Origin: Candidatus Multivoradales bacterium
GTDB lineage: Bacteria; Acidobacteriota; Thermoanaerobaculia; Multivoradales; J023
Length of the DNA: 64,000 bases
Assembly (NCBI GenBank): GCA_965248925.1
Contig: CBDFLE010000006.1
Location: 2,112,001 to 2,176,000, forward strand
Direction: 5' to 3'
Part shown: positions 6,403 through 26,220 of the stretch, piece by piece
Numbering within the stretch: the first letter of the stretch is position 1
Layout: each line of letters starts with the position of its first letter
Translations under genes and position numbers: made by a program
The notes under the pieces: generated by a model
What the model saw: the letters and a program-made list of their open reading frames with translations, nothing else
Told to the model about the DNA's origin: nothing
The model's database searches: none

Positions 6403-6732
6403 CTAATCCGAGTCGCCGAGACCAGAGCGTCGTTCAACTTTCCACAACGCCACGAGATCGCGGGCGCCGTGAATCAGACCCAGGATGTAGATCTTCTTTT
6501 CGCGAATCTCATAGAGCAACCGGTAGTTGCCAACCAGAAGTTCTCGAACGCTGGGCTCCCGGAGTTCAGGAACCACTCGACAGCGATGTGCCAGCTCATC
6601 GAGCGAGCGAGCCTGGCTGCGGATGCTCTCGACAAAGGCCGCGGCCTAGCCTGGCGAATCCTCGGCGATGTAGTCGGCGGTGTGCTCGAGATCCCGCCAA
6701 GCTGTCTCGGTCCAGACTACTTGTCGAGCCAT
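6403..6732 (-). pseudogene. parE: ParE/RelE toxin with in-frame TAG at codon 29 (6646-6648)
   Basis: MARQVVWTETAWRDLEHTADYIAEDSPG*AAAFVESI...RVVPEL..RELLVGNYRLLYEI..IHGARDL; absent from the ORF track. Confidence 0.85.
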
Positions 6733-6905
6733 CGAGCCATCCGGCGCTCGACATCAACCTGTGGGATCACCCGCCCAGCTTTGACGTCTTGGCGGCCCCG
6801 CTCAATGCGCTGGAGGACGTAGAGGTGGTACTGGATGTCTTCTAGCGAAGTCTCCTCGGGCAAAGTGTCGAGGATCTTCTGAGTTGCCTGTTTCGCGCTC
6901 GCCAT
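6717..6905 (-). CDS. Antitoxin of the ParE module
   Basis: LPEETSLEDIQYHLYVLQRIERGRQDVKAGRVIP, overlapping the toxin start. Confidence 0.8.
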   Translation of the reverse strand: MASAKQATQKILDTLPEETSLEDIQYHLYVLQRIERGRQDVKAGRVIPQVDVERRMARWLDK

Positions 6906-7059
6906 AGGTTTCATCATACCGCCAATTCAGCAGCCCCTCAGGGTTGTCTCCGGTTGAATTCTGATCAACCGCGATCTGTGCCAGCAGACCTCCGTCAGAG
7001 TTCTGAACACCGACAACAGCAGGTCCTCTCACCACCGCAGACGCCCCCCCAGCCCTCCT

Positions 7060-8483
7060 CCAGCGCCAGCCGGAAGGCGGCCATCTCTTCGCCGTTGCGC
7101 ACTAGCAAGAGGTCGCCGACCAACACCGGGTGATTCCAGGTCTTGCCCTTGATGGCCGGGAATCGCGCTAGCTCGATGAAGCGACCGGGCTTGGCCGCCA
7201 CCAGCACGAGCTCGCCTTTCTCTGACAACACCAGTAGGCAGGTCGCCGTTCGCCATCAGGGCCGGCTGCACGATGCCGCTCGGCCACGAGTGCTCCCAGA
7301 GCGGCGTGCCGCCAGCCAGGGTGACACTGGTCGCACCGGCACCGCTCAGCACTACGATCTGCACGACCCCGTCGAGGATCAGAAGATGTGGCGAGCTGTA
7401 GCTCCCGGCGGTGGTGAGGTCGTAGGCGACCAGCCCGCCAGCGTAGACGATAACGACGTCGCCAATCACCAAGGGCGAGTTCGTGAAGCCCCAGTCCGGC
7501 ACCTCGGCACCGGTGTCGGCGGCCGCGTTGCGCGACCATACGACACTGCCGTCTCCGGCGACCAGAGCGTTGAGGATTCCAGTCGCACCGAGGGTGTAGA
7601 CGCGGTCACCGCTCAGGGAGGGTGTTGCCCGCGGACCGGCGCCGGCATTGGACTCCCAAAAGCGGGTCGGGTCCCGATGTCTCCACAGCGGCTCGCCGGT
7701 GGTCGCGTCGTAGCAGGAGACGACCTCGTCGTCACCGCGCTGCTCCTGGGTGAAGAGGAGGTTACCGCTCACCGCAAAGGACGACCAACCCGGTCCGATC
7801 GGCCGGCGCCACAGCTCGGCCGGCGGCGACCGAGACCAATCGGTCTCGATGCGCACATCGTGGATGATGCTATCGCGGTCGGGACCGCGAAAGCCGGGTC
7901 ATTCGACCTCGGCTTGCGCTGCTGCTAGTAGCTGGGCCTGCGCGACCGGCTCGTCATCGGCTCGAGCGAGGAGCTTCGGCTCAGCGGTCTGCGACCATCG
8001 CCAGGCCAAATCCGATCCTGTGGCGGAAACACCATCGGTCCGCAAGAGAGTCCAGACTCCGCCAGCCAGCAGGATGGCGGCGACCATCGTGGCGCGCCGC
8101 GGTCCCGGGGCGAGGTGACGGCTGAGCACCGCCCAAGCGACCAGGGCGAGACACAGGACCGGGATGGCGAGAATGTAGAACATCATCCCCATCCCGCCGG
8201 TGGCAATCGACACATGGAGGAGGCGCGAATTCACCGCCAGGAAGATGATCATCAAGGCGATGGCGGCCCAGCGCTCAAACCGAGGCGCCCGGCTGAAGAA
8301 GGCCCACCAGACGACGATAGCCAAGCCGCCGAGCAAGGCACCAATCGCCCCGTAGAGCTCGGCCTCGGGTACGATCCAGGGAATGCCAAATCTGCCCAGC
8401 CATTGCAGCAGAACAATCGTCACGCCGGGCCACAGTCGGAGCGATCTTTGCCGAGTTGCACCGTCGGTCTGCTCGATGGCCAT
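7060..8483 (-). pseudogene. Decayed paralog of the membrane-anchored PQQ-like beta-propeller protein (38509-40236)
   Basis: Shared motifs LRLWPGV, RFWESNAGAGPRATP, GKTWNHP; TGG>TGA at 7899-7901 (WPGFRG), internal deletions and a frameshift. Confidence 0.9.
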
Positions 8484-8544
8484 CTCCAACTCTCCCATGG
8501 GTCTGTTGCTTCTTGCCGCCGGTTCCTTCGGTGATTCCGAGGTG

Positions 8545-8615
8545 CGGCGACGCTCAACCCTACGCCTTGGAGACCGCGAAGTTTTCGATGCGAGACGAGT
8601 TGGCTGAGACGGCCA
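8545..8615 (-). promoter_or_regulatory. Diverged copy of the PQQ-gene upstream element (repeat C)
   Basis: Minus strand cgaaaacttcgcggtctccaaggcgtagggttgagcgtc matches 35797-35838 and 38420-38460. Confidence 0.55.
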
Positions 8616-8913
8616 GGAGGCAGTCGCCAGCTCCTCCCGCGACCTCTGATCTGGGGACCAGCGCCCCATCCCCGGCAGGGTGGGCCTGGTGTGCGGGTGC
8701 TGTTTGCAGATTGCCGCCGCGCCCAAGGGTACGGTGCTACGACCCAGGTGGCACCTTTCTAGACCCTCACCGGCACCGTGGGGTGGTCCACGCCCTCAAC
8801 CTCCGGCGCCACCGCCCCGGTGAGCTACTCGAGGTGTTCGGGGACCGCCGAGCGGCGGCCGCCCGGCGGTGAGAAGAAGCCTCCTCGTCGAGCCGGGCGG
8901 CAGATATCGGTAC

Positions 8914-10008
8914 TCAGCTCGGAGAGGAGCTCGCGCTGGGAGAAAGGGGCGCCGGGTTCTTACGTTCCTGTTTGGCCCGAGTGAGCAAGACACCTTGTCC
9001 CATCTCCACCCTGCCCGGTCCGATCCGGGCTTTCAGACGCAGGGGAAAGCGAGTCGACGCCACCGCGTCGGCGAGCTCGAGTCCCAGGCTGTCCCCTTGA
9101 AACTCCACCTCGCCGGCATAGGTCGGCTGGCCGGTCGTGGAGAAGAAGCTGAGATGGGCGGTGCCATCTTTCCCGGGATCGCAGCAGATCAGATGATCCA
9201 CCGAGTAGGTCCCTGCCTCTTGCGAACGCAAGGTGAGCAATCCCAGCAGGAGGCGGCGCCGGATCAGGGGCTCGAAGCTACCTCCGAGAAACGCCTCCCG
9301 ATTCAGCAGCAGCGGTTGATCGTCGCCTCCGATCTTGATTCGGAAAGCCACGCCTGGATCGATCTCGATACCGTGGAAGGTATCGTCGAAGCTCTCCAGA
9401 ACCTCTTCGATCTCTCCCGGCCCCATGGGCTCGAGGCCAACGGGGACCAACCCTGCGCTCGGCGGTAGATCACCGCGGCTGGGCTCCACCGGCGGGATGT
9501 CCCCCTGGAGGTCAAGACGAGCCGCGATTAAAGTCCGGGCGAGGTCGGCCTGGGAGCCGACACCGGCCGGACTCCCACGCAAGGCAGCGAGGCTCTCCAG
9601 GGCCTCCTGGTCGCCAATGCGCCCCAAGGACTTGGCGATCTTGGCTTCGAGAAGACGGCTCTTGGTCGCCCGTAGAGCACGCAGCAAGACCTCTTGGACA
9701 CGAGCTCTGGGTCGGCAATGGCTGATGGCGACGGCGGCCACCGCCCGCAAGCCCTTGTCCTCGTCCTGGTTCAAGAGAACCTCCGCGAGCAATTCGCAAG
9801 CTCCCTGCGGATCGATCTTCGCCAAGAGGGCCAAGGCCTTGACCCTGGCCGCGTCCCGGATGTCCCCCTGGACCAGGCGACGCAGGAGGTCGAGGTCACT
9901 CTGGGGAAGCTCGGGAATGCGCCGTGGAGGCGTTCCATGCTTGGCGTCGATCAATGACATGAGCTCCTTGGTAGCGCCCAACTCCACTAGCAGTTTTTCT
10001 TTGGCCAT
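8914..10008 (-). CDS. HEAT/PBS-repeat protein with unknown C-terminal beta domain
   Basis: ARVKALALLAKI, LRAVAAVAI, IAKSLGRIGDQEALESL repeats; AGGAGG RBS. Confidence 0.75.
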   Translation of the reverse strand: MAKEKLLVELGATKELMSLIDAKHGTPPRRIPELPQSDLDLLRRLVQGDIRDAARVKALALLAKIDPQGACELLAEVLLNQDEDKGLRAVAAVAISHCRPRARVQEVLLRALRATKSRLLEAKIAKSLGRIGDQEALESLAALRGSPAGVGSQADLARTLIAARLDLQGDIPPVEPSRGDLPPSAGLVPVGLEPMGPGEIEEVLESFDDTFHGIEIDPGVAFRIKIGGDDQPLLLNREAFLGGSFEPLIRRRLLLGLLTLRSQEAGTYSVDHLICCDPGKDGTAHLSFFSTTGQPTYAGEVEFQGDSLGLELADAVASTRFPLRLKARIGPGRVEMGQGVLLTRAKQERKNPAPLSPSASSSPS

Positions 10009-10016
10009 GATGCCTC

Positions 10017-10688
10017 CTAGCAGACGTCGCGGACGTATCCGTGCTGTTTCATGGTGTTGCCCTGGCCACTGGAAATTCCAGTATTGCTATTGGAGCTGCC
10101 GTTGCCACCGATGAAGTTGGTATTCGAGGAGACATGCTCCAGGCCCAGGTAGTGGGCGATCTCGTGGGCCATGGTGTTCCCCGAGTTGTTGAACGAGCCG
10201 TTCAGGGAGACCACTGAGCCGGTCATGTTCTTGGCGTCCTTGTCGGGGTCGCCATCGACCGCCGACCAGCCGTCGGCACCGTTCATGTTGCGCACCACGA
10301 AGACGTCGAGAAAGCTGTTGTTGACCGTCCAATCGTGGGTGAGGTCCCTGGCCTCACCTACAGAATCGATGGTGCGGTGGCTGCCCGCCTGGGCGTTGGT
10401 GATGTGCCACCAGAGGACCCGGCGGATGCCAATATCCACATCGTCGTAGATCTCCCGGGCGAATTGAATCGCGTTTTCGATCTCATTGTTGTTGGTATCC
10501 GTGAAGTCCTCCAGCCCTACTTTGATGATGTTGATACCCAAGCTCTCCCCCTGGCAGAGTTCGAGCTGACGTTTCAGAGAGAGGTCGCGACCCGGCCCGC
10601 CGTGGGCGAAGCCGAAGAAATCTCTTCGTACCCTGAACGGGGTCGAGGCCCCGACGCAGCTAGCGATGGATTTGAGACTCAGAGCCAT
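10017..10688 (-). CDS. Metzincin-type zinc metallopeptidase (M43/matrixin-like)
   Basis: HEIAHYLGLEH (HExxHxxGxxH); no signal peptide. Confidence 0.8.
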   Translation of the reverse strand: MALSLKSIASCVGASTPFRVRRDFFGFAHGGPGRDLSLKRQLELCQGESLGINIIKVGLEDFTDTNNNEIENAIQFAREIYDDVDIGIRRVLWWHITNAQAGSHRTIDSVGEARDLTHDWTVNNSFLDVFVVRNMNGADGWSAVDGDPDKDAKNMTGSVVSLNGSFNNSGNTMAHEIAHYLGLEHVSSNTNFIGGNGSSNSNTGISSGQGNTMKQHGYVRDVC

Positions 10689-10706
10689 GGTTGTTCTCCT
10701 TTAGTC

Positions 10707-11684
10707 CTATTGCAGGCCGACGAGGAGGGGAACCATGCCCTTGCCGGCAGCGAGCGGCCGAAGGGCCTTGCCGAGTACCGCGCCAAATGCCTTGGCGGGA
10801 TCCTCGGCACGCATGGCATACCCGGCGGTGGGAGACGTGGTCAGCAGATCTCCCACCCGAATGGGGCAGAGGTCGGCATCGACCTGGCAGAAAACCTTGC
10901 CGACCAAGGCGATGGGCAGGCGCCCCTCCCTGCTGGCCTGGCGATCGAGCACCAGACCCGGCTGATAGTCGCCAGCACCCGAGATCACTCCGGCGACCCG
11001 GCGATCGTAGGCCTTCGTACAAAGATCCATCCGCCCTTCGTCGTCGATTACCATGACGGCTCCGGCAGCGGTCTGCGCAATGTTGGCGATATCAAAGTCC
11101 TCGGCGCAGTCGGCATTGCGCAAGGTGATGTCGCCGGCCTGACCGTCGAGATGGATGGTCGCCTCGCTGAAACCGTCGTCATTGGACTTGTTGGTCGGGT
11201 AGAGGGCGATGTCGCCGTCCGTGCCGTTTCCTCCCAGGCGCAGGTTGCCTTCCTCACCGTTCAGATGCACGGTGGCCTGGGACTCGTTGCGGGCCGTGGC
11301 CTCCCTGGCAAAGAGAAAGATATCGCCGTCGGTGCCGTTGGCGCCCATCCACAGGTTGGCTTCGTCACCGTCGATGTGGACCGAATCGCTTCCGGTGGAT
11401 CTACGCAGGATGATGTCGCCGTCTTTGCCTCCGCCGCCCGCCACTAGATTACCATTGCGGCCGAGCTCGATGATCACGTCGCCCGTGGCGCTCTTGATCT
11501 TGAGATTTCCTTCGTCGGCCCCCAACTCGACGCGGGTGTTCCCGGAACCGTCTTTGAGAATGAGATCTCCATCGACGCCATTGCCTCCCAGAATGGCGTT
11601 ACCGTTGTGGCTTTCTAGCTTGAGGGTGATTTGGTTGGTGCCGGTCTTCTCGATATTTACCGTGCCTTCGAACGTTTCGGACAT
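10707..11684 (-). CDS. Gly-rich beta-repeat fibre-like protein with C-terminal Peptidase G2-like intramolecular chaperone domain
   Basis: Repeated GxNGxDGDI/HLxG units, then ADCAEDF..VAGVIS..PIALVGKV..GDLLTTS..GKAL. Confidence 0.65.
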   Translation of the reverse strand: MSETFEGTVNIEKTGTNQITLKLESHNGNAILGGNGVDGDLILKDGSGNTRVELGADEGNLKIKSATGDVIIELGRNGNLVAGGGGKDGDIILRRSTGSDSVHIDGDEANLWMGANGTDGDIFLFAREATARNESQATVHLNGEEGNLRLGGNGTDGDIALYPTNKSNDDGFSEATIHLDGQAGDITLRNADCAEDFDIANIAQTAAGAVMVIDDEGRMDLCTKAYDRRVAGVISGAGDYQPGLVLDRQASREGRLPIALVGKVFCQVDADLCPIRVGDLLTTSPTAGYAMRAEDPAKAFGAVLGKALRPLAAGKGMVPLLVGLQ

Positions 11685-11740
11685 AGGACATGACTCCTTG
11701 GTGGTACTTGTCCAGTGATTAGTTGCGTGCTTGCCTCTAG

Positions 11741-11757
11741 AGCAACGCTTGTGCCAA
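11741..11757 (-). promoter_or_regulatory. Sigma54 (-24/-12) promoter
   Basis: Minus strand TTGGCAC-AAGCG-TTGCT, matching TGGCAC-N5-TTGC, about 55 bp upstream of the 11684 start. Confidence 0.85.
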
Positions 11758-11870
11758 ACCGGGTCCCGAGACCCGCGCTCGACCTTCTTGTATCTTCCAA
11801 ACTGAACAAAACAATAGCCTCAAATGTCCTGTTCCCGCGCCGAGCCATCCTGCATCAGCGGCTGCAAGTG

Positions 11871-11896
11871 TCCCAGCTGAGCACGGGGAACTGGGA
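11871..11896. promoter_or_regulatory. Candidate enhancer (bEBP UAS) palindrome
   Basis: TCCCAG-N14-CTGGGA about 120 bp upstream of the -24 box, with an AT-rich tract (11790-11826) between them. Confidence 0.4.
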
Positions 11897-12059
11897 ACGG
11901 GCTGCCAACCCCGCCCACTTTGTTGGCTGTCCTTCGCCAACAACCTTCTCCACCCGCTGTTTCGGCGATCTACGGCCCATTCACCAGCCCTATCCTCTCG
12001 ACCGGCACAACCGACGGTAAGCCAGCGCGATCACCTGGCTGGCGGCGTTGGTCGACAGA

Positions 12060-12178
12060 GCAGTAGCGCGCGCAGAGCTCAGCCAACGCCGCCCGGGAAC
12101 CCTCCGAGCCGCCTTCGCCGGAGGCCGGCATCAGGCCCCACCGGGTGGTAGCAAAGGCCGACGACCGCAGCGATGAGC
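12060..12178 (-). pseudogene. N-terminal fragment of ECF sigma factor
   Basis: FATTRWGLM..GSRAALAELCARY is the typical start of FxTTxW-type ECF sigmas; truncated. Confidence 0.6.
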
Positions 12179-12211
12179 CATCTTTCTCGGTGCCAGACAC
12201 TTGTCGAACGG
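12179..12211 (+). repeat. 33-bp segment, 31/33 identical to 17079-17111 inside narC
   Basis: cat[c/t]tttctcggtgccagacactt[g/a]tcgaacgg. Confidence 0.85.
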
Positions 12212-12460
12212 AACTATTCGGAATTTCCGAATAGTTGCCTCCGGATCGACCTCACCCTCAGCGTAAATACCAGCTATATGTTGGTTTACGGTCGATACTG
12301 CGATCTGGAACAGCTCTGCCATGTGTCGCTGTGACAGCCAGGCACTGTGCCCTACCAGACGAACCTGGAGGCGCAGGGAGTCCTCGTGGTAGATGACGAT
12401 TTGACCCGCGGACTCCCCACCCACCGGGGTTGCCCCAGGGCTGCTCGGGTCAGTTGGCAT
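12212..12460 (-). pseudogene. rhuM: Truncated RhuM-family protein
   Basis: QIVIY..LQVRL..WLSQRHMAELFQ..TVNQHIAGIYAEGEV..EATIRKFRIV, cut at 12212. Confidence 0.75.
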
Positions 12461-12626
12461 AGTCGAGCCCTCCCGGAGCTTCGCGGATCCCCTTATTGAG
12501 GCGCTCGGACTCATCGAAGTGCTGCTCAAACTCCACCAGCGAGATTGGCCACTCCTCCGCCAGCGGAGCCCGGCTCTTCTCAGCCGGGGTCAGCCGGGAT
12601 TTGCTGGTCAAGGTGGCCATCGACAT
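12450..12626 (-). pseudogene. Chimera: AbrB N-terminus fused to HsdM-like C-terminal tail
   Basis: MSMATLTSKSRLT + FEQHFDESERLNKGIREAPGGLDYAN*, overlapping the rhuM start as in type I R-M loci. Confidence 0.5.
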
Positions 12627-12678
12627 GTCCTCCCGGTACCACCTCCACTCCTACTGGTCTCCGGGGGCTGAAGCTCGG
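12600..12678 (+). repeat. Direct repeat B, copy 1
   Basis: Colinear with 15910-15987 (ttgctggtcaaggt..atcgacat..cacctcca..ccggg.gctgaagc). Confidence 0.8.
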
Positions 12679-13003
12679 CCGTCAACAAAAACAGCCCGCT
12701 GAGGGAATCCTGAACCTGTGGAAAACCAGCCCCCCTCTTCCCCCAACCGCTGGCGGCGAGCCTGCACATTTCTAATTGTCGCCTGTGCACAGAAGTAGTT
12801 GACGTCAGGGGACTACCCCTGTCGCAAGCGGCTCACCGCTTGACGATACGCCTTGGCAAAAAGGCAATAGGCATCCTACTAAGCGGGGCGCTCCTAGTGC
12901 TTGTGGGAAAACGCGGCGGCTGGCTGGTCAAGACTTTCCGGCAGACTATCGATGCCGAAGAGGGTGGCACCACGGTCGGCCAGTTCGGCGTCGCAGATGG
13001 CTC

Positions 13004-14236
13004 CTAACATACGACATCGACCTGGCAATTCGGGGCTTCACCACTGAGCCTAAGAATTGACCAGCCAAAACGATGGTACCTATCCGCGAGGCGCGGTTCA
13101 ACGGTAGAGAATACGACTTGAAAATTCACCTCTCGCGAAAGAAAGAAACTCACATACTTCTCTAGGTTAGTCGAATCAAAATGTAGAACTGCCAGATTGA
13201 TCAATAAGAGCGTGGGCATCACTTTTGCGGTCAAACTCGCCATGGCAATTTGCATTTCCAATACGGATCGCGAGGCCATGCTGCCGGAAATCATATGGAT
13301 GGAAACTCCATCTTTCCAATTAAGATCATCACCCAATATTCGACGGGTAGCGCCATGAGAATCCACTCGCAGTCGAACATAAGTGCTAGAAACATATCTT
13401 CCGACTTGCGGCAGCAACCTGGGGACTACCAGAGGATTGACGTCCATATACTCAGCCAGCAGGTCAACATCGTCTAGCTCATCTTCCCACGAACTACCGG
13501 CCTCATCTCTTTTCCGTTTCAGAAACGACTCAAACATCTGAAGCATCAAGTGCCTCTCGTAATTGACAATCTCCATTGGTATCGGATTGAAGAGCACGTC
13601 TTCCCCATTCAAGAAGAACCTAAGCTCCTCAGAGTCGCGATACACGCGAACCATCTTTCTTGCGTATGCGTAAAAGGAAGCTGAGTATTCAACAGGCGCC
13701 GTCTTGCTCTTGTGAGCAGAGTCGTATGGCTGACTGCTCACGCCGAGCTGATCGACCCAGCGGAAGATTGTACTCTTGCCCGTTGCATTCTTGCCCACCA
13801 GCAACGTTACCTTACTTAGAGGGACAACCGTGTTGGTCACGAATACCGGATTCTCTCCGATTTCGAGCTTCTCGAGGCGATGAAGGGGAAGCCCTTCATT
13901 CTCAGCTGCGATCCGGGCCTCATGCTCATCGCGGAAGCTGCGTAGCAATCTGGCTGGGAACTTGTCGCCCCGATTGGCATCAACGACTCGGGCATGCAGG
14001 GCACATAGCCATATCCCGTTCTCTACGGATTGTCGCTCGTCCCCTGACAAGCCTCCCGCACCACGGGGGCCATCTGCAGATGCGCTAAAAATATGAGACG
14101 CTGACCCGGTCATCGACGAATCACCAGAGCCTGCTCCAGGGCCAATAGTAATCTTATCGCAACCCGAGAATGCGCAACGGTAGCCCGAGCGGGCGGCTAT
14201 CTTGCGCCTCGTTCCTGCGTCGAATTTTGCGGCCAT
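13004..14236 (-). CDS. HNH endonuclease fused to degenerate ABC-type ATPase (candidate defence protein)
   Basis: RCAFSGC..ASHI..GPR..NGIWLCALHARVVD (Zn-HNH); GKNATGKST Walker A; ISGSM signature-like; LLLIN Walker B-like; AT-richer than flanks. Confidence 0.75.
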   Translation of the reverse strand: MAAKFDAGTRRKIAARSGYRCAFSGCDKITIGPGAGSGDSSMTGSASHIFSASADGPRGAGGLSGDERQSVENGIWLCALHARVVDANRGDKFPARLLRSFRDEHEARIAAENEGLPLHRLEKLEIGENPVFVTNTVVPLSKVTLLVGKNATGKSTIFRWVDQLGVSSQPYDSAHKSKTAPVEYSASFYAYARKMVRVYRDSEELRFFLNGEDVLFNPIPMEIVNYERHLMLQMFESFLKRKRDEAGSSWEDELDDVDLLAEYMDVNPLVVPRLLPQVGRYVSSTYVRLRVDSHGATRRILGDDLNWKDGVSIHMISGSMASRSVLEMQIAMASLTAKVMPTLLLINLAVLHFDSTNLEKYVSFFLSREVNFQVVFSTVEPRLADRYHRFGWSILRLSGEAPNCQVDVVC

Positions 14237-14267: not shown

Positions 14268-14807
14268 TCAGGTAACCAGATCACTCAAGAGACGGTAGAC
14301 AGCCCACAGAAGTACGGCAGCCTGAACAACCACGACGAAGCCCTGAATCTGAGCCCACTTCACAAAGCTACGTGCTGACGCAGCAAAGTCACCCGACTGA
14401 GCCTTCGCCAAGCTACGCCTTACAAACCACTTGAGCGGTGGAAACATTGCCTTCTCCAACTCTCCAAAAACTATCTTGAAGTCGAGATCGAACTCAGCAA
14501 ACTTCTCACCGATCTCACGCCCAGCGGCGGAAGCTTCGGCTGCGCCTCGAAGTACTGTGGCAATGTACTTCTCGACAAGTCCAAGCACCACTGCGATCAA
14601 GAACAGCCTACCGGCTGCCCTCAAGGCAATGACGGGCAAGTGTGCCTGAAGCGAGCCCACATTGCTGATAAGGAATACCAGGGCCGCCGCGAATCCCCCC
14701 AGCAGCCAACTTGAGAAGCTATCCAGCGAAGCACTGCACTTGCCTGCCGCCTCCGATAGGAGTGCGCTCGCCAAGACCTTCTCGTGTACGTCCTCAGTGT
14801 CGCTCAT
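14268..14807 (-). CDS. Hypothetical membrane protein (about 3 TM)
   Basis: 179-aa ORF with three hydrophobic stretches; AT-richer than flanks. Confidence 0.7.
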   Translation of the reverse strand: MSDTEDVHEKVLASALLSEAAGKCSASLDSFSSWLLGGFAAALVFLISNVGSLQAHLPVIALRAAGRLFLIAVVLGLVEKYIATVLRGAAEASAAGREIGEKFAEFDLDFKIVFGELEKAMFPPLKWFVRRSLAKAQSGDFAASARSFVKWAQIQGFVVVVQAAVLLWAVYRLLSDLVT

Positions 14808-15663: not shown

Positions 15664-15936
15664 TCAGTCAACCAACTCGCAGGGGGCGCCCAGCTGGTGA
15701 TTCGCCGGCAGCACCCCGGCGAATCGCCTCGTCGAGTTCTTCCTCGCTCCGCGCCCGCTCCTCGGGGCCGAAAAGACCCCGTGCGTCGCAAGATCAAGGG
15801 TGGCAGCCTCTACCCACACCCGGCCGGATGGGCCTTTGCGGAATTCCAGCCGGTCCCCCCGATGCACTCCGAGATGTTCCCGGATCTCTTTGGGCAAGGT
15901 CAGCTGGGCTTTGCTGGTCAAGGTAGCTATCGACAT
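15664..15936 (-). pseudogene. AbrB/MazE/SpoVT antitoxin, probably frameshifted near 15785
   Basis: ATLTSKAQLTLPKEIREHLGV..GDRLEF; the typical tail RGLFG..SEEELDEAIRRG lies in another frame. Confidence 0.7.
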
Positions 15937-15987
15937 CTCCCTACGATATCACCTCCATCCTTACCTGTCGCCGGGAGCTGAAGCCCG
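15910..15987 (+). repeat. Direct repeat B, copy 2
   Basis: See 12600-12678. Confidence 0.8.
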
Positions 15988-16143: not shown

Positions 16144-16587
16144 TTGTTTTCGATGACGGCAAGCTATGCCATGAGAGCCCTCAGCCACTTGGCGCAAGCC
16201 TACGGGTGCGGACCCTTGCCGGGTCGTGATCTGGCCGAACAGGCCGAGATCCCGGTGAGCTACCTGGCGAAGATCCTGCTGGTGCTCAAGCGAGCCGGGT
16301 TCGTCAAGACCACCCGCGGTACCGGCGGTGGCTATCGCCTCGCCCAGCCGGCGAAGGGAATCTCCCTGATGCAGATAGTCGAGCAATTCGATTCTCAGAG
16401 CGCCTTCAGCGGTTGCCTGCTCTATGGCGGTCGCCCCTGCTCACCAGACTGTCCCTGCTCCGCTCATAAGCGCTGGAGCAAGGTCAAGGATACGTACTTG
16501 AGCTTTCTCGAAACGACCACTCTCGACCAGATCTCGAACCCGGCCAGCCTGCCATCGCAGCCCGGCGCGGCGCATGAGAGCAAGTAG
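16144..16587 (+). CDS. Rrf2 family Fe-S transcriptional regulator
   Basis: YAMRAL, SYLAKIL, RGTGGGYRLA; C-x7-C-x3-C-x-C-x2-H. Confidence 0.9.
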   Translation: MFSMTASYAMRALSHLAQAYGCGPLPGRDLAEQAEIPVSYLAKILLVLKRAGFVKTTRGTGGGYRLAQPAKGISLMQIVEQFDSQSAFSGCLLYGGRPCSPDCPCSAHKRWSKVKDTYLSFLETTTLDQISNPASLPSQPGAAHESK

Positions 16588-16602
16588 TCGAGCCCCAGGA
16601 GG

Positions 16603-17487
16603 ATGTCGATGGTCGGCCATCACGCCAACAGCTTAGAAACCGGGAATAGAGCGGCCCGGTGGCGCTTTCTCGCTTTCGGTCTTGCCGTCGTCTTGGCGGC
16701 TGCAATTCCGGCCCATGTGGCGGCGCAGGAAGCTGCCGAAATCTTCCGCCAGAGCTGCGTCAGCTGCCACACCATCGGCGGTGGGCGGCTGGTGGGTCCC
16801 GACCTGGCTCAGGTCAGCGAGCGTCAGGAGCGCGAGTGGTTGATCGGCTTCATCGTCGACCCCAAGGGAGTGCTCGACAGCGGCGACTCCTACGCCCTGG
16901 AGCTGAAAAGTCAGGCCGGTGGCGCGCTGATGCCGCCGGTCGCCGGTATGACCCGCCAGCGGGCCGAGGCACTGCTCGACCTGATCCTGGCCGAGTCGGC
17001 CCTGCCGGAGTCTGAATTCGCCGGTCTCGACATCGGCGACGAGCCCTTCAGCACGGTCGATATCGAACAAGGCCGGCGCATTTTTCTCGGTGCCAGACAC
17101 TTATCGAACGGTGGCCCGCCCTGCCTCTCATGCCACACCGTGGGCAGCCTCGGAGCCCTCGGCGGCGGCCGCCTCGGTCCCGACCTGACCCGGGTTTACG
17201 AGCGTCTGCAAGGGCGCAAGGGCCTGGCCTCCTGGCTGTTGGCACCAGCCACCGAAGTCATGCGGCCGGTCTATGCCGAGCAGCGCTTAACCAACGAGGA
17301 GATCCTGCCGCTGGTGGCCTTCCTCGAAGACCAGGCGCGCCATGGTAGCGAGGATCCCGGTACTTCCCAAATCACATTCCTGCTGTTGGGCTTGGCTGGC
17401 GCGGCGATCGCTTTGGTCCTCGCCGATGCCATTTGGCGGCGGCGTTTCCGCGGCGTACGCCGGCAATTGGTCCGAGGTGAGCGATGA
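16603..17487 (+). CDS. narC: Membrane-anchored di-haem cytochrome c (NarC-like)
   Basis: Signal peptide, CVSCH and CLSCH with GPDL motifs, C-terminal TM; ATGA overlap with narG. Confidence 0.8.
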
Positions 17488-20400
17488 AGATAAAGACTAA
17501 CAACCCATGGATCCAAGACGAGGTGGACCCTCAGTCCCGCGGCTGGGAGGAGTTCTACCGCAATCGCTGGCAGCACGACAAAGTGGTGCGTTCCACCCAT
17601 GGCGTCAATTGCACCGGCGGCTGTACCTGGCAGATCTACGTCAAGAACGGCATCGTCACCTGGGAGATGCAGGGGCTCGATTACCCCCTCTTGGAGCCCA
17701 GCCTGCCGCCCTATGAGCCGCGCGGTTGCCAGCGGGGCATCTCTTTCTCCTGGTACCTCTACAGTCCGCTGCGGGTAAAGTATCCCTACGCCCGCGGCGC
17801 CCTGCTCGACCTCTGGCGGGCGGCGCGGCAGCGCCACGAGGACCCGGTGGACGCCTGGAAGAGCTTGGTTTCTGACCCTGAGTCGCGGCGCCGCTACCAG
17901 CAGGCGCGGGGCAAGGGGGGCTTCCGCCGCACCGATTGGGACACGGTGCTCGAGCTGATGGCGGCGGCCAATGTCCACACCATCAAGGAGCATGGACCCG
18001 ATCGGGTGACCGGTTTCTCGCCGATCCCGGCGATGTCGATGATCAGCTACGCCGGTGGCTCGCGCTTCTTGCAGCTGTCGGGTGGCACCTCGCTGTCGTT
18101 CTACGACTGGTACTGCGACCTACCCAACGCCTCGCCTGAAACCTGGGGCGAACAGACCGATGTGCAGGAATCAGCCGATTGGTACAACGCCAAGTTGCTG
18201 GCGGTGATGGGCTCGAACCTCAACATGACCCGCACTCCGGATTGTCACTTCGCCGCCGAGGCGCGGCACAACGGCACCAAGATGTGGGTGTTCTCACCGG
18301 ACTTCTCGCAGGTCGCCAAATTCGCCGATGAATGGGTGTCGATCAACGCCGGCCAGGACGGCGCTTGGTGGATGGCGGTCAATCATGTGCTGCTCAAAGA
18401 GTTCCATCACGAACGCCAAGAAGAGAGCTTCCTCGACTACACCAAGCGCTTCACCGACTCCCCCTACTTGGTGGAACTGAAGGCCGAGAATGGCCCTTCC
18501 GGCAAGATACTGCGGGCTGGCCAGATGCTGCGCGCCAATCGCCTGGCACCCTACAAAGAGGTCGAAAATGGCGACTGGAAGTTCCTCATGTGGGATACGT
18601 CCGGTGAGCCACGGATGCCGATGGGCAGCTCGGGTTTTCGCTGGGGCAAGAAAGGGCAGTGGAATCTCAAGCTCGAAGATGGACTGACCGGCAAACCCAT
18701 CGACCCAGAGCTGAGCTTCCTGGAGCAGCCCGAAGACGTGCTGCAAGTCCGCTTCGATGATTTCGGCCAGGGCGAGAACTTGTTGCGCGGCGTGCCGGTG
18801 CGCTACCTCGAAACCGCCGACGGCGGCAAGGTCGCTGTGACCACCGCCTACGACCTGCTGATGGCCCAATACGGCGTCTCTCGCGGTCTCGAAGGTGCCT
18901 ACCCGGCGGACTACGACGACGACGCTCCCTACACCCCGGCCTGGGCCGAGAAGTACACCGGCATGAGCCGCGCCATGCTGCTGCGCTTCGCCCGTGAGTG
19001 GGGCGAGACGGCGCTCAGGACCGGCGGCAAATGCACCATTATCATCGGCGCCGGCATCAACCACTGGTACCACGCCAACCTGATGTATCGCGCCGGCATC
19101 CACGCCCTGATGCTGTGCGGCTGCATCGGCAAGAACGGTGGCGGTCTGGCACACTATGTTGGCCAGGAAAAGCTGGCCCCCGGCGAGTCCTGGGGCGCGC
19201 TGGCCATGGGCAAGGATTGGTACGGGCCCTCGCGGCTGCAGAACGCGCCGAGCTGGCACTACGTCCACACTGACCAATGGCGCTACGAGAAGTCCTTCAC
19301 CGACTACCACACGGTGCCTGAGGGCAACACCCAGGCAGGCGGCCACACCATGGACCATCAGGTCAGGGCGGTGCGCAACGGCTGGCTGCCCTTCTACCCG
19401 CAATTCAACGTCAACAGCCTCGACCTGGTCAAGCAAGCCGAAGCAGACGGAGCAAAGACCGAGGAAGAGATCTCCCAATGGTTGGTCGGGAAGCTAAAGT
19501 CGGAGGAGATTCGTTTCTCGGTAGAGGATCCCGACGCCCCTGAGAACTGGCCACGGGTTTGGTACATCTGGCGCGGCAATGCGCTGATGGCCAGCGCCAA
19601 GGGGCATGAGTACTTCCTCAAGCACTACCTCGGCACGCACACCAACACCATCGCCGAGGATATGGCCGAAGATTCGGTGACGGAGGTCAAGTGGCGCGAC
19701 GCACCGGAAGGCAAGATGGACCTGGTGGTCGATCTCAACTTCCGCATGGACACCTCGGCCTTGTACTCGGACATCGTCCTGCCAGCGGCCACCTGGTACG
19801 AGAAAGCAGATCTCAACACGACCGACATGCACAGCTTTATCCACCCCCTGTCGAAGGCGGTGCCACCCTGCTGGGAGTCGAAGAGTGACTGGCAGATCTT
19901 CCGCGAGCTGGCCAAGAAGCAGTCCGAGGTCGCGGCGCCGCACTTCCCCGAGCCGGTTAAGGACTTGGTGGCGGTGCCCCTGGCCCACGACTCAGCGGCC
20001 GAGATCGCCCAAACGCATATCGCCGATTGGAAGAGCGGCGAGGTCGAGGCCATTCCGGGTAAGACCATGCCGGCCTTCAAGATCGTCGAGCGCGACTATA
20101 AAAACCTTTACAAGCAATTCTGTGCTTTCGGTCCGCTACCGCGCAAGGGCGGCCTCGGTGCCCACGGCACCCATTACCCGATCAAGGACTTCTACGACGA
20201 ACTGGCCGCCCGGCAGCCCTGCCGCGAATGGCCCGAGGAAAACTACCCGTCGATCAAGGAGGACGAAGAGGTCTGCAACCTGATCCTGCAATTGGCCTCG
20301 GTCACCAATGGTGAGCTGGCCTACCGCTCCTACCGCGACATGGAGGAGAAGACCGGTCTGCCGCTGGTCCACCTGGCAGAGAAGAACCGTGGCACCAGGG

Positions 20401-21119
20401 TGACCTACAAGGATTTGCAGAGCCGGGTTCAAAGGCTGATCAACAGCCCCATGTGGTCCGGGCTGACCGAGAATGGCCGCGCCTACTCTCCATTCACTTA
20501 CAACGTCGAGAACCTGGTGCCATGGCGCACCCTCACCGGACGTCAGCACTTCTATCTCGACCACGAGCTCTACCTTGAGTTTGGCGAGCACCTGCCGACC
20601 TACAAGCCGAAACCACTGCCCGCGCAATACGCCGACCTGACCTTCACCGAGGAGGAGCAGGCGTCGATGATGCTCAACTACTTGACCCCGCACGGCAAAT
20701 GGCACATCCACTCGACTTACGGTGACAATCAACGGATGACCACGTTGTCGCGCGGCTGCGAGCCCCTGTGGCTCAATCATCAGGATGCCGCTCGGTTGCA
20801 GATCGAAGATAACGATTGGGTGGAGGTCTACAACGATCACGGCGTGGTGGTCACCCGCGCGGTGGTCTCGGCACGGATCCCGCCGGGCATCTGCATTCAA
20901 TATCATTCACCGGAACGCACCCTCGGGGTGCCCAAGTCACCGCTGCGCGGCAACCGCCGTGCCGGTGGCCACAACAGCCTCACCCGGACGCGCCTGAAGC
21001 CCAACCTGATGGCTGGCGGCTATGGCCAGTTCACGTTCCATTTCAACTATTGGGGTCCCACCGGCTGCAATAGAGACACCCACATCTTGGTACGCAAGCT
21101 GCCTGAGCTGAACTGGTAA
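17484..21119 (+). CDS. narG: Nitrate reductase (Nar/NXR family) alpha subunit
   Basis: [47 protein letters not shown]; no Tat signal. Confidence 0.97.
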
Positions 21120-21139
21120 AGAGCGCGGAGGAAGTAAAG

Positions 21140-22626
<1,487 letters not shown>

Positions 22627-22630
<4 letters not shown>

Positions 22631-23295
22631 ATCACCGCGAGCTGAATACCACCGGCTGGCAAGGGCTCAACACTCTCGGCCGGCTATTGATCTATCCCGT
22701 GGGCGACTTTACCGAGCGAACCGCCAAATGCCGGCAACAGTTGGCATGCCAGGGCGAGAGCAAGGTGCTAGAGCTGCTCGCGCCGGCCCTCGAGGCGCTT
22801 GAGCAGTTCTCGCTGCACGAACACGAAGAGCTCTACACCCAGACCTTTGACCTCAACCCGGTATGTACGCTGGAGGTCGGCTGGCACCTCTACGGCGAGC
22901 AGTACGAGCGCGGCCGCTTCCTGGTCCGCGCTCGCGAGTTGCTCACCGCTGTCGGTCAGGACGAAGGCGGCGAGTTGCCCGACTTCCTACCCTCACTACT
23001 TGGCGCGCTACCTCGCCAAGGGGAGAGTGAGGCGATCGACCTGGCCGCCTACCTGGTGCCGGCAGTGAGGAAAATGTGTGAAGCACTGACCGACAAAGAT
23101 CCTGAAAACCCCTACAACACCATTCTCCTCGCCGTCCTCCAAGGGCTCGAAACACGGGTGCCCGGCGACGCGGTAGAGAAAGTCGAGGACCGCTATCGGC
23201 CGCATTTGCGCGCACGGAAGCAGGATCTCGTACAGCTAGGCTCTTTTGCTCAAGGCTCCGCCAACGGGTGCTCTGCCAACCGGGGACCGCAATGA
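22627..23295 (+). CDS. narJ: Nitrate reductase Moco assembly chaperone
   Basis: ELYTQTFD, LYGEQYERG, ELPDFL; position between narH and narI. Confidence 0.9.
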
Positions 23296-23999
23296 GCTGG
23301 ACTAGCCAAATGGATACTTTCTGCTTCGCCATCCTGCCCTACCTGGCACTGGCGCTTTTCTTTGGCGGCACCATCTTCCGCTACCGGACGCAGGCGTTTT
23401 CGTATTCGAGCCTGTCGTCGCAGTTTCTTGAGAATCGCCATCACTTCTGGGCGATGGTGCCCTTTCACTACGGCATTCTCACCGTGTTGATCGGCCACAT
23501 CGTCGCTTTCCTGATCCCGCGGCAGATCTTGCTGTGGAATGCCAAACCGCTACGGCTCTACATCCTGGAGGTCTCGGCGCTAGTCTGTGGCCTGTTGTCG
23601 GTCGTCGGCCTGCTAGCCATCGTCCAGCGGCGGCTGAGTGCCAAGAAGGTGCGGATCATCACCACCCCGGCCGACTGGATGCTCTATCTGCTACTGGCGA
23701 TGCAGCTGGCCTCCGGGGTCTACGTCGCCCTCTTCTATCCCTGGGGCTCCTCATGGTTCGCCGCCTCGGCAGCGCCCTACCTGTGGTCGGTGGTGCGATT
23801 GCAACCCGACATCAGCTATCTGGTGGCCATGCCTTGGGCGGTCAAGCTACACATCATCAACGCTTTCGTAGTAGTCGGATTCTTCCCCTTCACCCGCCTG
23901 GTGCATGTGCTGGTAGTACCCAATCCCTATCTGTGGCGTAAACGCCAAGTGGTGCGGTGGAATGCTGATCCGCGAGCGCTGGCGAGGAAAAGAGGATGA
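23292..23999 (+). CDS. narI: Nitrate reductase gamma subunit (cytochrome b)
   Basis: SSLSSQFLE, PFHYGIL..GH, KLHI, FPFTRLVH. Confidence 0.95.
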   Translation: MSWTSQMDTFCFAILPYLALALFFGGTIFRYRTQAFSYSSLSSQFLENRHHFWAMVPFHYGILTVLIGHIVAFLIPRQILLWNAKPLRLYILEVSALVCGLLSVVGLLAIVQRRLSAKKVRIITTPADWMLYLLLAMQLASGVYVALFYPWGSSWFAASAAPYLWSVVRLQPDISYLVAMPWAVKLHIINAFVVVGFFPFTRLVHVLVVPNPYLWRKRQVVRWNADPRALARKRG

Positions 24000-25522
24000 G
24001 CGAGAACAAGGGCGCAATCAGAGTGCTGATCCTCAACACTCTGGCCTTCACGGTCTGCTTCGCTTGTTGGATGACCAACGGCGTGCTGATCACATTCTTG
24101 ATCGAGAACGGCATGTTCAGCTGGAGCCAATCGCAGATTGGCTGGCTGATCGGTATCCCGGTCCTGACCGGCGCCATCACCCGGTTGCCGGTGGGCATCC
24201 TGACCGACAAATACGGCGGGCGCATCGTCTACACCGTGCTGATGCTGGTGGCAGCAGTGCCGATGTACTTGCTGAGCGAGGCTTCCACCTACGGCCACTT
24301 TGTCGCCGCCAGTCTCGGCTTTGGCCTCACCGGTGCTTCCTTTGCCGTCGGCATCGCCTACACCTCGGTGTGGTTCTCGAGGGAACGCCAAGGCACTGCG
24401 CTGGGTATCTTCGGCGCTGGCAACGCCGGTGCCGCCTTGACCAGCATGGGAGCTCCTTTCCTGCTCCGCCGGCTGACCGCGGACGGCGAAAATATCGACG
24501 GCTGGCGCACCATGCCGAAGCTCTACGCCGGCGCCTTGGTAATCACCGCGATTATTTTCTTCCTGCTAACCGTGTCGAAGAAAGTTGACGACAGCCACAT
24601 CACCAGCTTCAGCCAGCGGCTGGCACCGCTCAAGCACCTGCGGGTGTGGCGCTTTGGTCTCTATTACTTTCTAGTCTTCGGTGGCTTCGTCGCTTTGGCC
24701 CAGTGGCTGATCCCCTACTACGTCAACGTCTACCTGATGCCGGTCACCGTAGCTGGCCTGATGGCCGCGATCTTCACTCTGCCCTCGGGCGTGATCCGCG
24801 CCTTGGGGGGCTGGATGTCCGACCACTGGGGTGGCCGAGTGGTGATGTTCTGGGTGCTCGGCATCTGTCTCGGCGCTTTCCTGCTGCTCAATGTGCCACG
24901 GATGGACATCGAGTCACCGGGCAAAGGGGTGATGGCTCGCAGTAGCGGGGTGGTGACCAGCGTCACCACTGAGGAGATCGTCGTCGATGACAAGTCTTAT
25001 GCCATGCGGGCGATGCCCGAGGGCTGGATCGATCAGCGTGATAGCGGCGTGGCGGTCCTACCCACCGCCGCATTCTGGCAAGAGCCGGTGGTCGAACTAG
25101 GTGAGATGGTCAACAAGAAACAGCTGTTGGCCAAGGGGGTCACCCACATTTTTTTCCAGGCCAATGTGTGGATCTTCACCGGCCTTGTGTTCATCGTCGG
25201 CATCATGATGGGGATCGGCAAGGCCGCGGTCTACCGGCTGATTCCGGACTACTTCCCTAACGATGTCGGAGTGGTGGGAGGCATCGTCGGGGTGATGGGG
25301 GGCCTGGGGGGCTTCGTCTGCCCGATCCTTTTCGGCTACATGCTGCAGTGGACCGGCATCTGGACTACTTGCTGGATCTTCTTCACCGTTCTTGCCACCA
25401 TCTGCTTCTTCTGGATGCAGTGGGTGGTACGAGAGATCCTGCGCGACCAGGCACCAACTCTGCACCGTGAGATCGAACATCCCGACGCCCGCGACCAAGA
25501 TTACGGTTGGCAGAGGGGCTAG
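23996..25522 (+). CDS. narK: NarK1-type nitrate transporter with extra loop domain
   Basis: RLPVGILTDKYGGR, GIFGAGNAG, YFLVFGGFVAL, RALGGWMSD. Confidence 0.92.
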   Translation: MSENKGAIRVLILNTLAFTVCFACWMTNGVLITFLIENGMFSWSQSQIGWLIGIPVLTGAITRLPVGILTDKYGGRIVYTVLMLVAAVPMYLLSEASTYGHFVAASLGFGLTGASFAVGIAYTSVWFSRERQGTALGIFGAGNAGAALTSMGAPFLLRRLTADGENIDGWRTMPKLYAGALVITAIIFFLLTVSKKVDDSHITSFSQRLAPLKHLRVWRFGLYYFLVFGGFVALAQWLIPYYVNVYLMPVTVAGLMAAIFTLPSGVIRALGGWMSDHWGGRVVMFWVLGICLGAFLLLNVPRMDIESPGKGVMARSSGVVTSVTTEEIVVDDKSYAMRAMPEGWIDQRDSGVAVLPTAAFWQEPVVELGEMVNKKQLLAKGVTHIFFQANVWIFTGLVFIVGIMMGIGKAAVYRLIPDYFPNDVGVVGGIVGVMGGLGGFVCPILFGYMLQWTGIWTTCWIFFTVLATICFFWMQWVVREILRDQAPTLHREIEHPDARDQDYGWQRG

Positions 25523-25530
25523 GAGAGGTC

Positions 25531-26184: not shown

Positions 26185-26220
26185 CGCCCATGACTCGTGA
26201 AGGAACGTGAAGGATACGAT

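Follow-up and report, generated by a model that had tools for sequence, protein, structure and literature searches.

A candidate fibre operon in a Multivoradales bacterium pairs a predicted self-cleaving fibre with a tag found on exchangeable enzymes

Introduction

What would a fibre with a self-cleaving, phage-type chaperone do in a bacterial operon, directly before the genes for a zinc protease and a HEAT protein? Fibre chaperones that cleave themselves are known to aid folding, and their removal exposes a sugar-binding tip. In the operon described here the cut is seemingly tied, across at least 11 phyla, to a dedicated tag that exchangeable enzymes carry. If this is true, it adds to PAAR/VgrG and other polymorphic systems a new logic of carrier, cargo and partner, and a possible route for the display or release of enzymes that lack signal peptides. 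It also defines a new domain, the tag, plus a short tag-tip pair. Each part taken singly is of a known kind; judged from the sequences, what is new is the proposed pairing of fibre and tag. No description of the operon or the tag was found in the literature searched, which included few subscription papers and no supplements, and excerpts of PMC9710869 and PMC8326128 hold nothing specific to the operon.

Operon Structure and Upstream Elements

The locus was analyzed within a window of 64,000 nucleotides (the whole stretch of DNA under study). The operon consists of three minus-strand open reading frames, preceded by several candidate regulatory elements:

10707-11684, minus strand: gene 1, fibre precursor, 325 aa
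10017-10688, minus strand: gene 2, tagged zinc protease, 223 aa
8914-10008, minus strand: gene 3, HEAT protein, 364 aa
11742-11756, minus strand: sigma54-type -24/-12 site TGGCAC-N5-TTGC, local to the source genome
11788-11822: AT-rich tract of 34% GC, downstream of the inverted repeats and upstream of the promoter
11871-11896: weak palindrome with 6-bp arms (11871-11876 and 11891-11896) and a 14-base spacer
11920-11943: inverted repeat of 8 bp, some 165-190 bases before the promoter

The initial annotation described three tightly spaced genes with good ribosome binding sites and no signal peptides, and this description holds: the intergenic gaps are 18 and 8 bases, a GGAG-type site precedes each gene, and none of the three N-termini is strongly hydrophobic in a 12-residue hydropathy window, a crude proxy rather than a signal-peptide predictor (best means of -0.09, 1.5 and 0.92 for genes 1, 2 and 3). 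The sigma54-type site (TGGCACAAGCGTTGC), claimed as a promoter, is real. It lies 57 bases upstream of gene 1; the window contains no other match, where 0.16 would be expected by chance, and 30 matches occur across the genome. As the source genome encodes rpoN, and the G[AS]FTGA activator motif is present in 18 of its open reading frames, the -24/-12 site before the first gene suggests that the operon is sigma54-dependent in this organism. Sigma54 control as a feature of the whole family was rejected, since the site is shared by 0/72 homologous loci and is absent from the loci of 4 related genomes. The annotated AT tract is confirmed, whereas the accompanying palindrome is only weak; a better inverted repeat, equalled in 21 of 500 shuffles, is located at 11920-11943 and could be an activator site.

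Over 6500-13000 the sequence is identical to a short-read contig that may derive from the same source DNA. The module had been called intact among pseudogenes. For one neighbour this is borne out: the PQQ-propeller gene at 7029-8726 is split, and its intact paralogue at 38509-40236 is the longer of the two. The other, a 132-aa open reading frame at 12131-12529, resembles a RhuM fragment.

Gene 1 Carries a Predicted Autochaperone

Three regions can be distinguished in gene 1:

11112-11684, minus strand: stalk (aa 1-191), all-beta Gly/Asp repeats, net charge -16
11112-11135, minus strand: pre-cleavage tip G184-D-I-x-L-x-N-A191, proposed docking site
10710-11111, minus strand: predicted G2/gp12-D4-type autochaperone (aa 192-325) with D192 and E195

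The stalk contains four G-x-N/G-G-x-D-G-D repeats (mostly 2-6 in homologues), followed by NA/DCAEDF, where the slash marks the putative cut site. Residues 192-323 align with residues 692-854 of phi29 gp12 (3GQH) with Z 14.4 and an rmsd of 2.1 over 111 aligned residues, and Foldseek matched gene 1 to 3SUC (E 9.7e-4); the C-terminus thus shows the tandem beta-tulip fold of gp12 D4. The cut site and the catalytic Glu are in register, with A191/D192 and E195 corresponding to S691/D692 and E695 of gp12; 3GQH starts at D692, and the E695Q exchange is present in 3SUC, the structure of the precursor. The motif D-x-A-E-x-F was observed in 199 of 201 gene 1 homologues. On the strength of sequence alignment and structure model, the C-terminus of gene 1 is a phi29 gp12 D4/G2-type autochaperone, as had been proposed, and by analogy with gp12 the protein is predicted to trimerise and cleave itself.

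Gene 1 gave no match to Pfam PF11962 (Peptidase_G2), scoring below the cut-off. Weak matches to this family are present in 10/72 homologues (best E 6e-4), and one longer relative reaches 24.2 bits against a cut-off of 25. Atlas matches were clusters of hypothetical proteins and one 12% Peptidase_G2 cluster. The same C-terminal fold is common to capsid decoration trimers that are not cleaved (Z 8.6-12.4). A triple-stranded beta-prism of the VgrG/gp5 type was looked for in the stalk: comparison of a monomer model with VgrG, gp5 and PVC spikes gave Z 4.3-4.8 over about 50 residues, which is within noise.

Gene 2 Consists of a Three-Helix Tag and a Zinc Protease Domain

Gene 2 has two parts:

10551-10688, minus strand: three-helix tag (aa 1-46), without a Pfam, PDB or Atlas match
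10020-10550, minus strand: reprolysin/ADAM-fold catalytic domain (aa 47-223)

The metzincin assignment made earlier is supported by a Pfam Reprolysin_3 match above the cut-off, by the zinc motif HEIAHYLGLEH at residues 175-185, which has the HExxHxxGxxH form, and by the catalytic fold (Z 15.7 to 1DTH, rmsd 2.8, 173 residues aligned). Residues 1-46 are a new modular domain; the initial annotation had missed both the tag and its exchangeable cargo. The tag family shows the pattern S-hydrophobic-R/K at positions 4, 19 and 37, with Arg at position 19 in gene 2. An arrangement of three PAAR-like beta-strands was considered for this region and rejected, because the structure model shows three helices.

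The tag is found N- or C-terminally on other proteins: galactose-oxidase-like proteins (L067, L071), a tyrosinase (L087), a lipase (L093), FN3 (L056) and pentapeptide-repeat (L098) proteins, and a papain-like protein (P0401) that comes with no genomic context. The tagged lipase, tyrosinase, galactose-oxidase-like and FN3 proteins adjoin G2-type fibres. Cargos of these types are typical extracellular enzymes, yet they lack signal peptides. A profile of the tag matched 328 representatives at 50% identity, the top one being a repeat artefact. In the genomes of 50 of the 79 fibre loci, which were covered by the tag search, all 46 tag matches (in 45 genomes) adjoin a fibre gene, and no orphan tagged protein was found in these genomes or elsewhere in the source genome. 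Among the best 16 candidates per genome in 401 genomes of the phylum there were five tag matches; the four strong ones adjoin a fibre, and the weak fifth (L154) looks spurious.

Conservation of the Three Genes

The trio co-occurs across phyla, as the initial annotation had anticipated: of 79 loci from 11 phyla, 52 contain it, or 59 when dead proteases are counted. With profiles trained on these loci, the tag was detected in 73, the HExxH protease in 58 and the HEAT gene in 59; a protease profile built from independent protein matches found gene 2 in 63/79 fibre loci. No other gene family is consistently adjacent across the 79 loci.

Proposed Mechanism and the Association of Tag and Tip

The reading that we tentatively prefer, at a little short of an even chance, is a stand-alone carrier, in which the exposed tip of a self-cutting trimeric fibre binds the tagged protease. 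By analogy with gp12, gene 1 would fold into a trimeric beta fibre aided by its C-terminal G2-type domain, which would cut itself off after Ala191. The tip thereby exposed would bind the protease encoded by gene 2 through its three-helix tag, and the HEAT protein would hold or chaperone the protease. Three Ser-capped basic helices may contact the acidic ends of the three chains around the three-fold axis; the net charge is positive in 54/81 tags and negative in 54/62 tips. The loaded fibre might act outside the cell, with lysis or a machine encoded elsewhere as conceivable exit routes. A broader proposal, which we regard as unlikely, is that a free, length-tunable trimeric needle constitutes a new polymorphic effector class. 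Release of the chaperone would uncover a three-fold socket for any enzyme with the 46-residue tag, so that zinc or cysteine proteases, lipase, tyrosinase and galactose oxidase would be exchangeable cargo, a HEAT partner would guard the protease cargo, and the needle would act on neighbouring cells or matrix without a secretion or contractile machine.

Beyond the G2 domain, tagged fibres share the tip motif GDIxLxNA, which occurs in 189/201 homologues and in 0/43 signal-peptide relatives, a clade picked from a quick, mostly unresolved G2-domain tree that served this purpose only. At loci outside the training set, the tag is on the next gene for 11/17 fibres with the GDI tip and for 1/46 others (background rate, 1.2%), although the loci are not independent, 6 of the 17 missed the threshold and the tip class was defined after the data had been seen. 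Tip and tag could both merely mark one clade.

It is improbable that the tag docks instead on the G2/beta-tulip trimer, as precursor or as released domain, which would make the released chaperone or the uncleaved fibre the carrier. This reading draws on the retention of the tag across unrelated stalk types while the G2 domain stays about 56% identical, on a few G2 positions specific to the tagged clade (C193, Y240, R255, F300 and P319), and on the binding of partners by beta-tulip trimers at three-fold axes, as described in parts of 10.1101/216911. In terms of pairwise similarity, the tag correlates better with the G2 domain (0.17) than with the tip (0.03), so that this mirror-similarity test gives no sign of tip-tag co-evolution; the tag correlates at 0.55 with its own protease and at 0.47-0.52 with gene 3. 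Against docking on the G2 trimer speak the untagged signal-peptide fibres, whose G2 domain is about as conserved, and the tip, which is the sharpest clade-specific signal.

Phage and Contractile-System Context

A nearby phage origin was rejected. The module has no match in 50,697 phage records and none in PHROG under E 0.09, none of the scanned window proteins was recognised as a structural phage protein, and no virion gene is a conserved neighbour, in line with the lack of phage context claimed before. Four close IMG/VR matches likely have a tagged next gene, with no virion gene recognised within 4 kb.

The stand-alone carrier has to be weighed against a module that is an accessory of an eCIS encoded elsewhere, its fibre or spike adding tagged cargo to the particle; to this we give a small chance only. 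The T4 gp19-type tube family is encoded in 33/50 carrier genomes, compared with 62/401 genomes in the phylum of the host, and in 7/7 GDI-tip carriers within that 401-genome sample. Contig C5 of the source genome carries an eCIS-type locus, and fibre and cargo both lack a signal peptide. The tube family is, however, frequent among close kin regardless of the module (17/23 genomes in the family, 35/61 relatives) and was not found in 17 of the 50 carriers; five carriers chosen for lacking the tube gene also showed no sheath or gp5, though their genomes may be incomplete. Among cultured carriers, Aquimarina amphilecti has a tube gene, and none was found in Altibacter lentus. No eCIS or T6SS tube, sheath, baseplate or spike gene is a conserved neighbour in the 79 loci or was seen among the window proteins scanned, and the fibre has no recognisable baseplate-attachment domain. 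The T6SS sheath is present in only 11/50 carrier genomes and absent from the source genome. Cargo for a contractile system encoded elsewhere, as suggested initially, is a possible but not a necessary reading. No export gene is linked to the locus.

Protease Activity and the HEAT Protein

Gene 3 contains HEAT repeats at about aa 50-165, as annotated, plus a C-terminal domain for which no assignment was found. HEAT genes accompany protease-type cargo and 0/7 non-protease cargos, one of the seven having little downstream sequence. In PADLOC, which covers defence systems, genes 1 and 2 had no match and gene 3 had a generic HEAT match. At 7 loci the tag and the HEAT gene are kept while the HExxH motif is lost. 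As the protease retained there is catalytically dead, attacking a target enzymatically is not always the point, and the annotated pair of protease effector and HEAT inhibitor stands as to its domain types but is weakened as a purely toxic system.

Very unlikely is a tag that acts as a pro-domain (cysteine switch) or as a HEAT-binding or oligomerisation unit of an intracellular protease-control or scaffold module whose fibre carries no enzyme: Cys11 is kept in 76/81 tags and in 107/108 tagged proteases, the similarity of the tag tracks the protease and gene 3, and dead proteases are retained, but the tag also occurs on non-proteases, at C-termini and without a HEAT gene, yet beside a fibre, and close protease relatives without the tag exist that are fused to other domains instead.

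Comparison With Known Systems

The structure of phi29 gp12 was reportedly first described by Xiang et al. in 2009. Gene 1 resembles gp12 in its C-terminal fold, in the position of the cut and in that of the Glu whose exchange for Gln traps the precursor. In contrast to gp12, it is cellular, with no virion genes around it, has a much shorter D4 insertion and falls below the Pfam cut-off; its stalk lacks an enzyme or particle-attachment domain, and it is paired with tagged cargo. The gp12 D4 domain is required for trimer assembly and is then cleaved off, according to parts of PMC3357383 and 10.1101/216911.

Like the Bdellovibrio MAT fibres (S74 group), in which a self-cutting C-terminal chaperone exposes a binding tip, gene 1 would be a bacterial phage-like trimeric beta fibre. 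Each MAT carries a signal peptide, an N-terminal domain that the group has in common and an S74 SDxxxK site (PMC10769870), whereas gene 1 fibres lack all three, rely on a G2-type domain and are accompanied by a gene for cognate cargo. Pfam gave no S74 match for gene 1, which has neither the signal peptide nor the SDxxxK site of a MAT.

The proposed likeness to PAAR/VgrG lies in a capped tip, variable enzymes and a partner gene beside the cargo. As at the VgrG/gp5 spike with its PAAR or cargo effectors in T6SS and eCIS, a single-chain pseudo-three-fold module would cap a blunt trimeric beta tip. The present locus differs in that it has no PAAR, VgrG, tube or sheath and its tag is predicted to be helical; in some carriers no contractile genes were found.

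The signal-peptide G2-type fibres of Acidobacteriota, Chloroflexota and other bacteria share the G2 family and the DxAExF motif with gene 1. A hydrophobic N-terminus is present in 39/43 of them versus 0/120 gene 1-type fibres; xITGG[AS]/D or a similar sequence stands at their end, and a tagged gene rarely follows.

The M12B reprolysin/ADAM proteases share the catalytic fold and the HExxHxxGxxH motif with gene 2. Gene 2, in contrast, has no signal peptide, carries the 46-residue tag instead of any known pro-domain, and has Ile193 rather than Met at the presumed Met-turn position, assigned from the alignment; of the 108 aligned relatives, 61 have Met there and 45 have Ile.

Operon organization and conservation

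The operon comprises three genes:
10707-11684 (-), gene 1, fibre precursor of 325 aa (stalk 1-191, G2/gp12-D4-type domain 192-325)
10017-10688 (-), gene 2, zinc protease of 223 aa, with residues 1-46 as a tag
8914-10008 (-), gene 3, HEAT protein of 364 aa

The fibre-cargo-partner module, in which the cargo is the tagged protein encoded beside the fibre, is real and conserved, and apparently undescribed so far; neither operon nor tag was found described in the literature searched. The reading frames, spacing, ribosome-binding sites and TGGCAC-N5-TTGC sigma54 site of the initial annotation were all borne out on re-inspection of the sequence. The site, 57 bases ahead of gene 1, is the single match within 64 kb (0.16 expected), and the genome carries rpoN and an activator motif in 18 ORFs; it is not a shared feature, being missing upstream of 72/72 homologues. 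The palindrome noted there is weak; a stronger one, an 8-bp inverted repeat, occupies 11920-11943. Across the operon the sequence is identical in a short-read contig that may come from the same source, and no paralogues of genes 1, 2 or 3 were found in the genome.

Synteny was assessed in the best 79 of 365 confirmed homologous loci (L-numbers), from species genomes of 11 phyla and biased to near relatives of gene 1. Gene 2 is present at 63/79 loci with a protease profile built from independent hits, and gene 3 was matched at 29 using only the window's gene 3 as query. Profiles trained on these same 79 loci detected the tag at 73, an HExxH protease at 58, HEAT at 59 and the full trio at 52, with dead protease plus HEAT at a further seven; gene order differs at three (L045, L050, L092). 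No other conserved neighbour was found in the 79 loci, where recurring families are common housekeeping or signalling genes at 14 loci or fewer in shifting positions, except for a chained neighbour cluster represented by an antisense frame. The distribution is patchy (tag match in 5/401 genomes of the host's phylum). In a Caldilineaceae genome, a 1972-aa SpvB/TcdB/Rhs-type protein is encoded immediately upstream of the fibre gene (L037:3515-9430).

The fibre and its predicted autochaperone

The gene 1 family is large (3,896 matches among 7,998 scored candidates), with homologue stalks of about 140 to 500 residues as judged from uncurated ORF starts. Its predicted model (pLDDT 87.6) combines an all-beta repeat stalk with a C-terminal domain; gene 1 scores below the Pfam Peptidase_G2 cut-off. 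The top structural match of the modelled domain is the released phi29 gp12 fragment (Z 14.4, rmsd 2.1, 111 aligned), followed by uncleaved capsid decoration proteins (Z 8.6-12.4). A gp12-type domain is preferred over a decoration protein because the sequence, with cut site and Glu in register, decides: A191/D192-C-A-E195 aligns with phi29 gp12 S691/D692-F-A-E695 (slash, cut site), the PDB gp12 fragment begins at D692, and the trapped gp12 precursor is E695Q. The cleavage motif is conserved in 199/201 homologues. In its proposed cargo logic the module resembles PAAR/VgrG loading.

D4 of gp12 is described as driving trimer assembly and being cut off (PMC3357383; 10.1101/216911), and by analogy gene 1 would trimerize and shed its C-terminal domain. 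In folding logic the fibre resembles phi29 gp12 and the Bdellovibrio S74 MAT fibres (PMC10769870). Membership in phi29 gp12/MAT-type or PAAR/VgrG systems was rejected, the module belonging to neither; a phage gene was likewise rejected after phage sequence and contig searches.

The tagged cargo and its partner

Gene 2 has a HEIAHYLGLEH zinc motif and a reprolysin/ADAM fold across residues 46-223, with Ile at the presumed Met-turn position. Homologues in L025, L032, L045, L052, L054, L062 and L066 are pseudo-proteases without the zinc-binding His/Glu that retain tag and HEAT gene. The first 46 residues fall outside the protease fold and are modelled as three short helices (5-11, 20-25, 38-46), each beginning with a near-invariant Ser (79, 71 and 76 of 81 family members); the window copy has Arg, not Ser, at the second position. 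The tag had no match in Pfam, PDB or Atlas. All 46 of its 46 matches in the 50 carrier genomes searched adjoin a fibre gene, and where fibre genes have no protease the neighbour usually bears the same tag. A papain-like protein carries the tag as well.

Tagged cargos at homologous loci
L071, galactose-oxidase-like, tag at both ends
L067, galactose-oxidase-like, tag C-terminal
L087, tyrosinase, tag C-terminal
L093, lipase, tagged
L056, FN3, tagged
L098, pentapeptide-repeat, tagged
L060, different zinc peptidase, tagged

Gene 3 has HEAT repeats (HEAT_2 match in 46/47 family members, E<0.05) and a C-terminal half without an assigned domain; there is also a shorter version of some 155 aa. The HEAT gene is missing beside 7/7 non-protease cargos, and therefore gene 3 tracks the protease and the tag tracks the fibre.

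Proposed cargo docking and alternative explanations

The best mechanism, to which we give slightly less than an even chance, is that cleavage of gene 1 would uncover a tip, the GDIxLxNA motif ending at Ala191, on which tagged cargo would dock. The next gene was scored as tagged for 11/17 GDI-tip fibres vs 1/46 others (background 1.2% of 1,214 ORFs), these loci lying outside the training set without being independent, the tip class being set after inspection, and one GDI-tip locus being left out for want of a following ORF. Most tags are basic, whereas tips are mostly acidic; the association, these opposite charges and the absence of the motif from a signal-peptide clade (below) all point to the newly exposed tip as the docking site. 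Against this, tag and tip may be just markers of one clade, and their similarities are uncorrelated (0.03; tag-gene 3, 0.47-0.52).

Docking of the tag on the G2 trimer instead is unlikely: tagged cargo does persist where the stalks are unrelated, as in three viral contigs of low GC whose tag-like stretch is C-terminal, but in an untagged signal-peptide clade (43 relatives) the G2 domain is about equally conserved, whereas the last strand differs and GDIxLxNA occurs in 0/43, vs 189/201 gene 1 homologues.

The viral contigs (L162-L164, IMG/VR, 34-41% GC), probably Bacillota prophages from the inferred host, carry fibre and cargo as an extra gene pair; the cargo has 444 aa, no Pfam match and a homologue in L195. 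The signal-peptide fibres with the same G2-type domain form a large unnamed family (L176-L194, L201-L223; proteins P0279-P0331) with up to 12 matches per genome, a G2 counterpart of MAT fibres; G2-type fibres of all types occur in 53/401 phylum genomes.

An eCIS accessory role is possible, at the same fairly low probability. A different contig of this genome carries an eCIS-type locus, and tube genes occur in 33/50 carriers vs 62/401 of the phylum sample, including 7/7 GDI-tip carriers in that sample; the baseline among kin, however, is 35/61, and no tube gene was found in 17/50 carriers, nor a sheath or gp5 gene in five of those. The association may reflect shared lifestyle. That the tag is a pro-domain, or the operon a means of intracellular control, is more improbable still.

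The eCIS-type locus (G000:C5, about 2051800-2072300; L155, L156) encodes a 1012-aa sheath, tube, Pvc16, AAA ATPase, gp5-OB, gp25 and a 2138-aa His-rich protein. A second tube gene, apparently solitary, lies at G000:C6:2740344; no T6SS sheath was found in this genome.

Genomic surroundings

The PQQ beta-propeller gene at 7029-8726 (-) is split and shortened, a break also seen in the short-read contig, and has an intact paralogue (58-68% identity) at 38509-40236 (+). Segments 12179-12211 and 12588-12677 recur 3-5 kb further, at about 17079-17111 (94% alike) and 15898-15987 (80%), surrounding what we take to be a RhuM-like fragment and toxin-antitoxin-like remnants. Within a low-GC patch (50%), 13004-14236 (-) encodes an HNH-like nuclease fused with a P-loop/AAA region, whose PADLOC matches are effector endonucleases (best PDC-M68A, E 9e-21); with the adjoining unannotated hydrophobic protein of 179 aa (14268-14807, -) it forms a candidate defence gene pair. 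The respiratory cluster at 16144-30682 (+) contains cytochrome c, molybdopterin oxidoreductase and NrfD-type genes, headed by a presumably Rrf2-like regulator.
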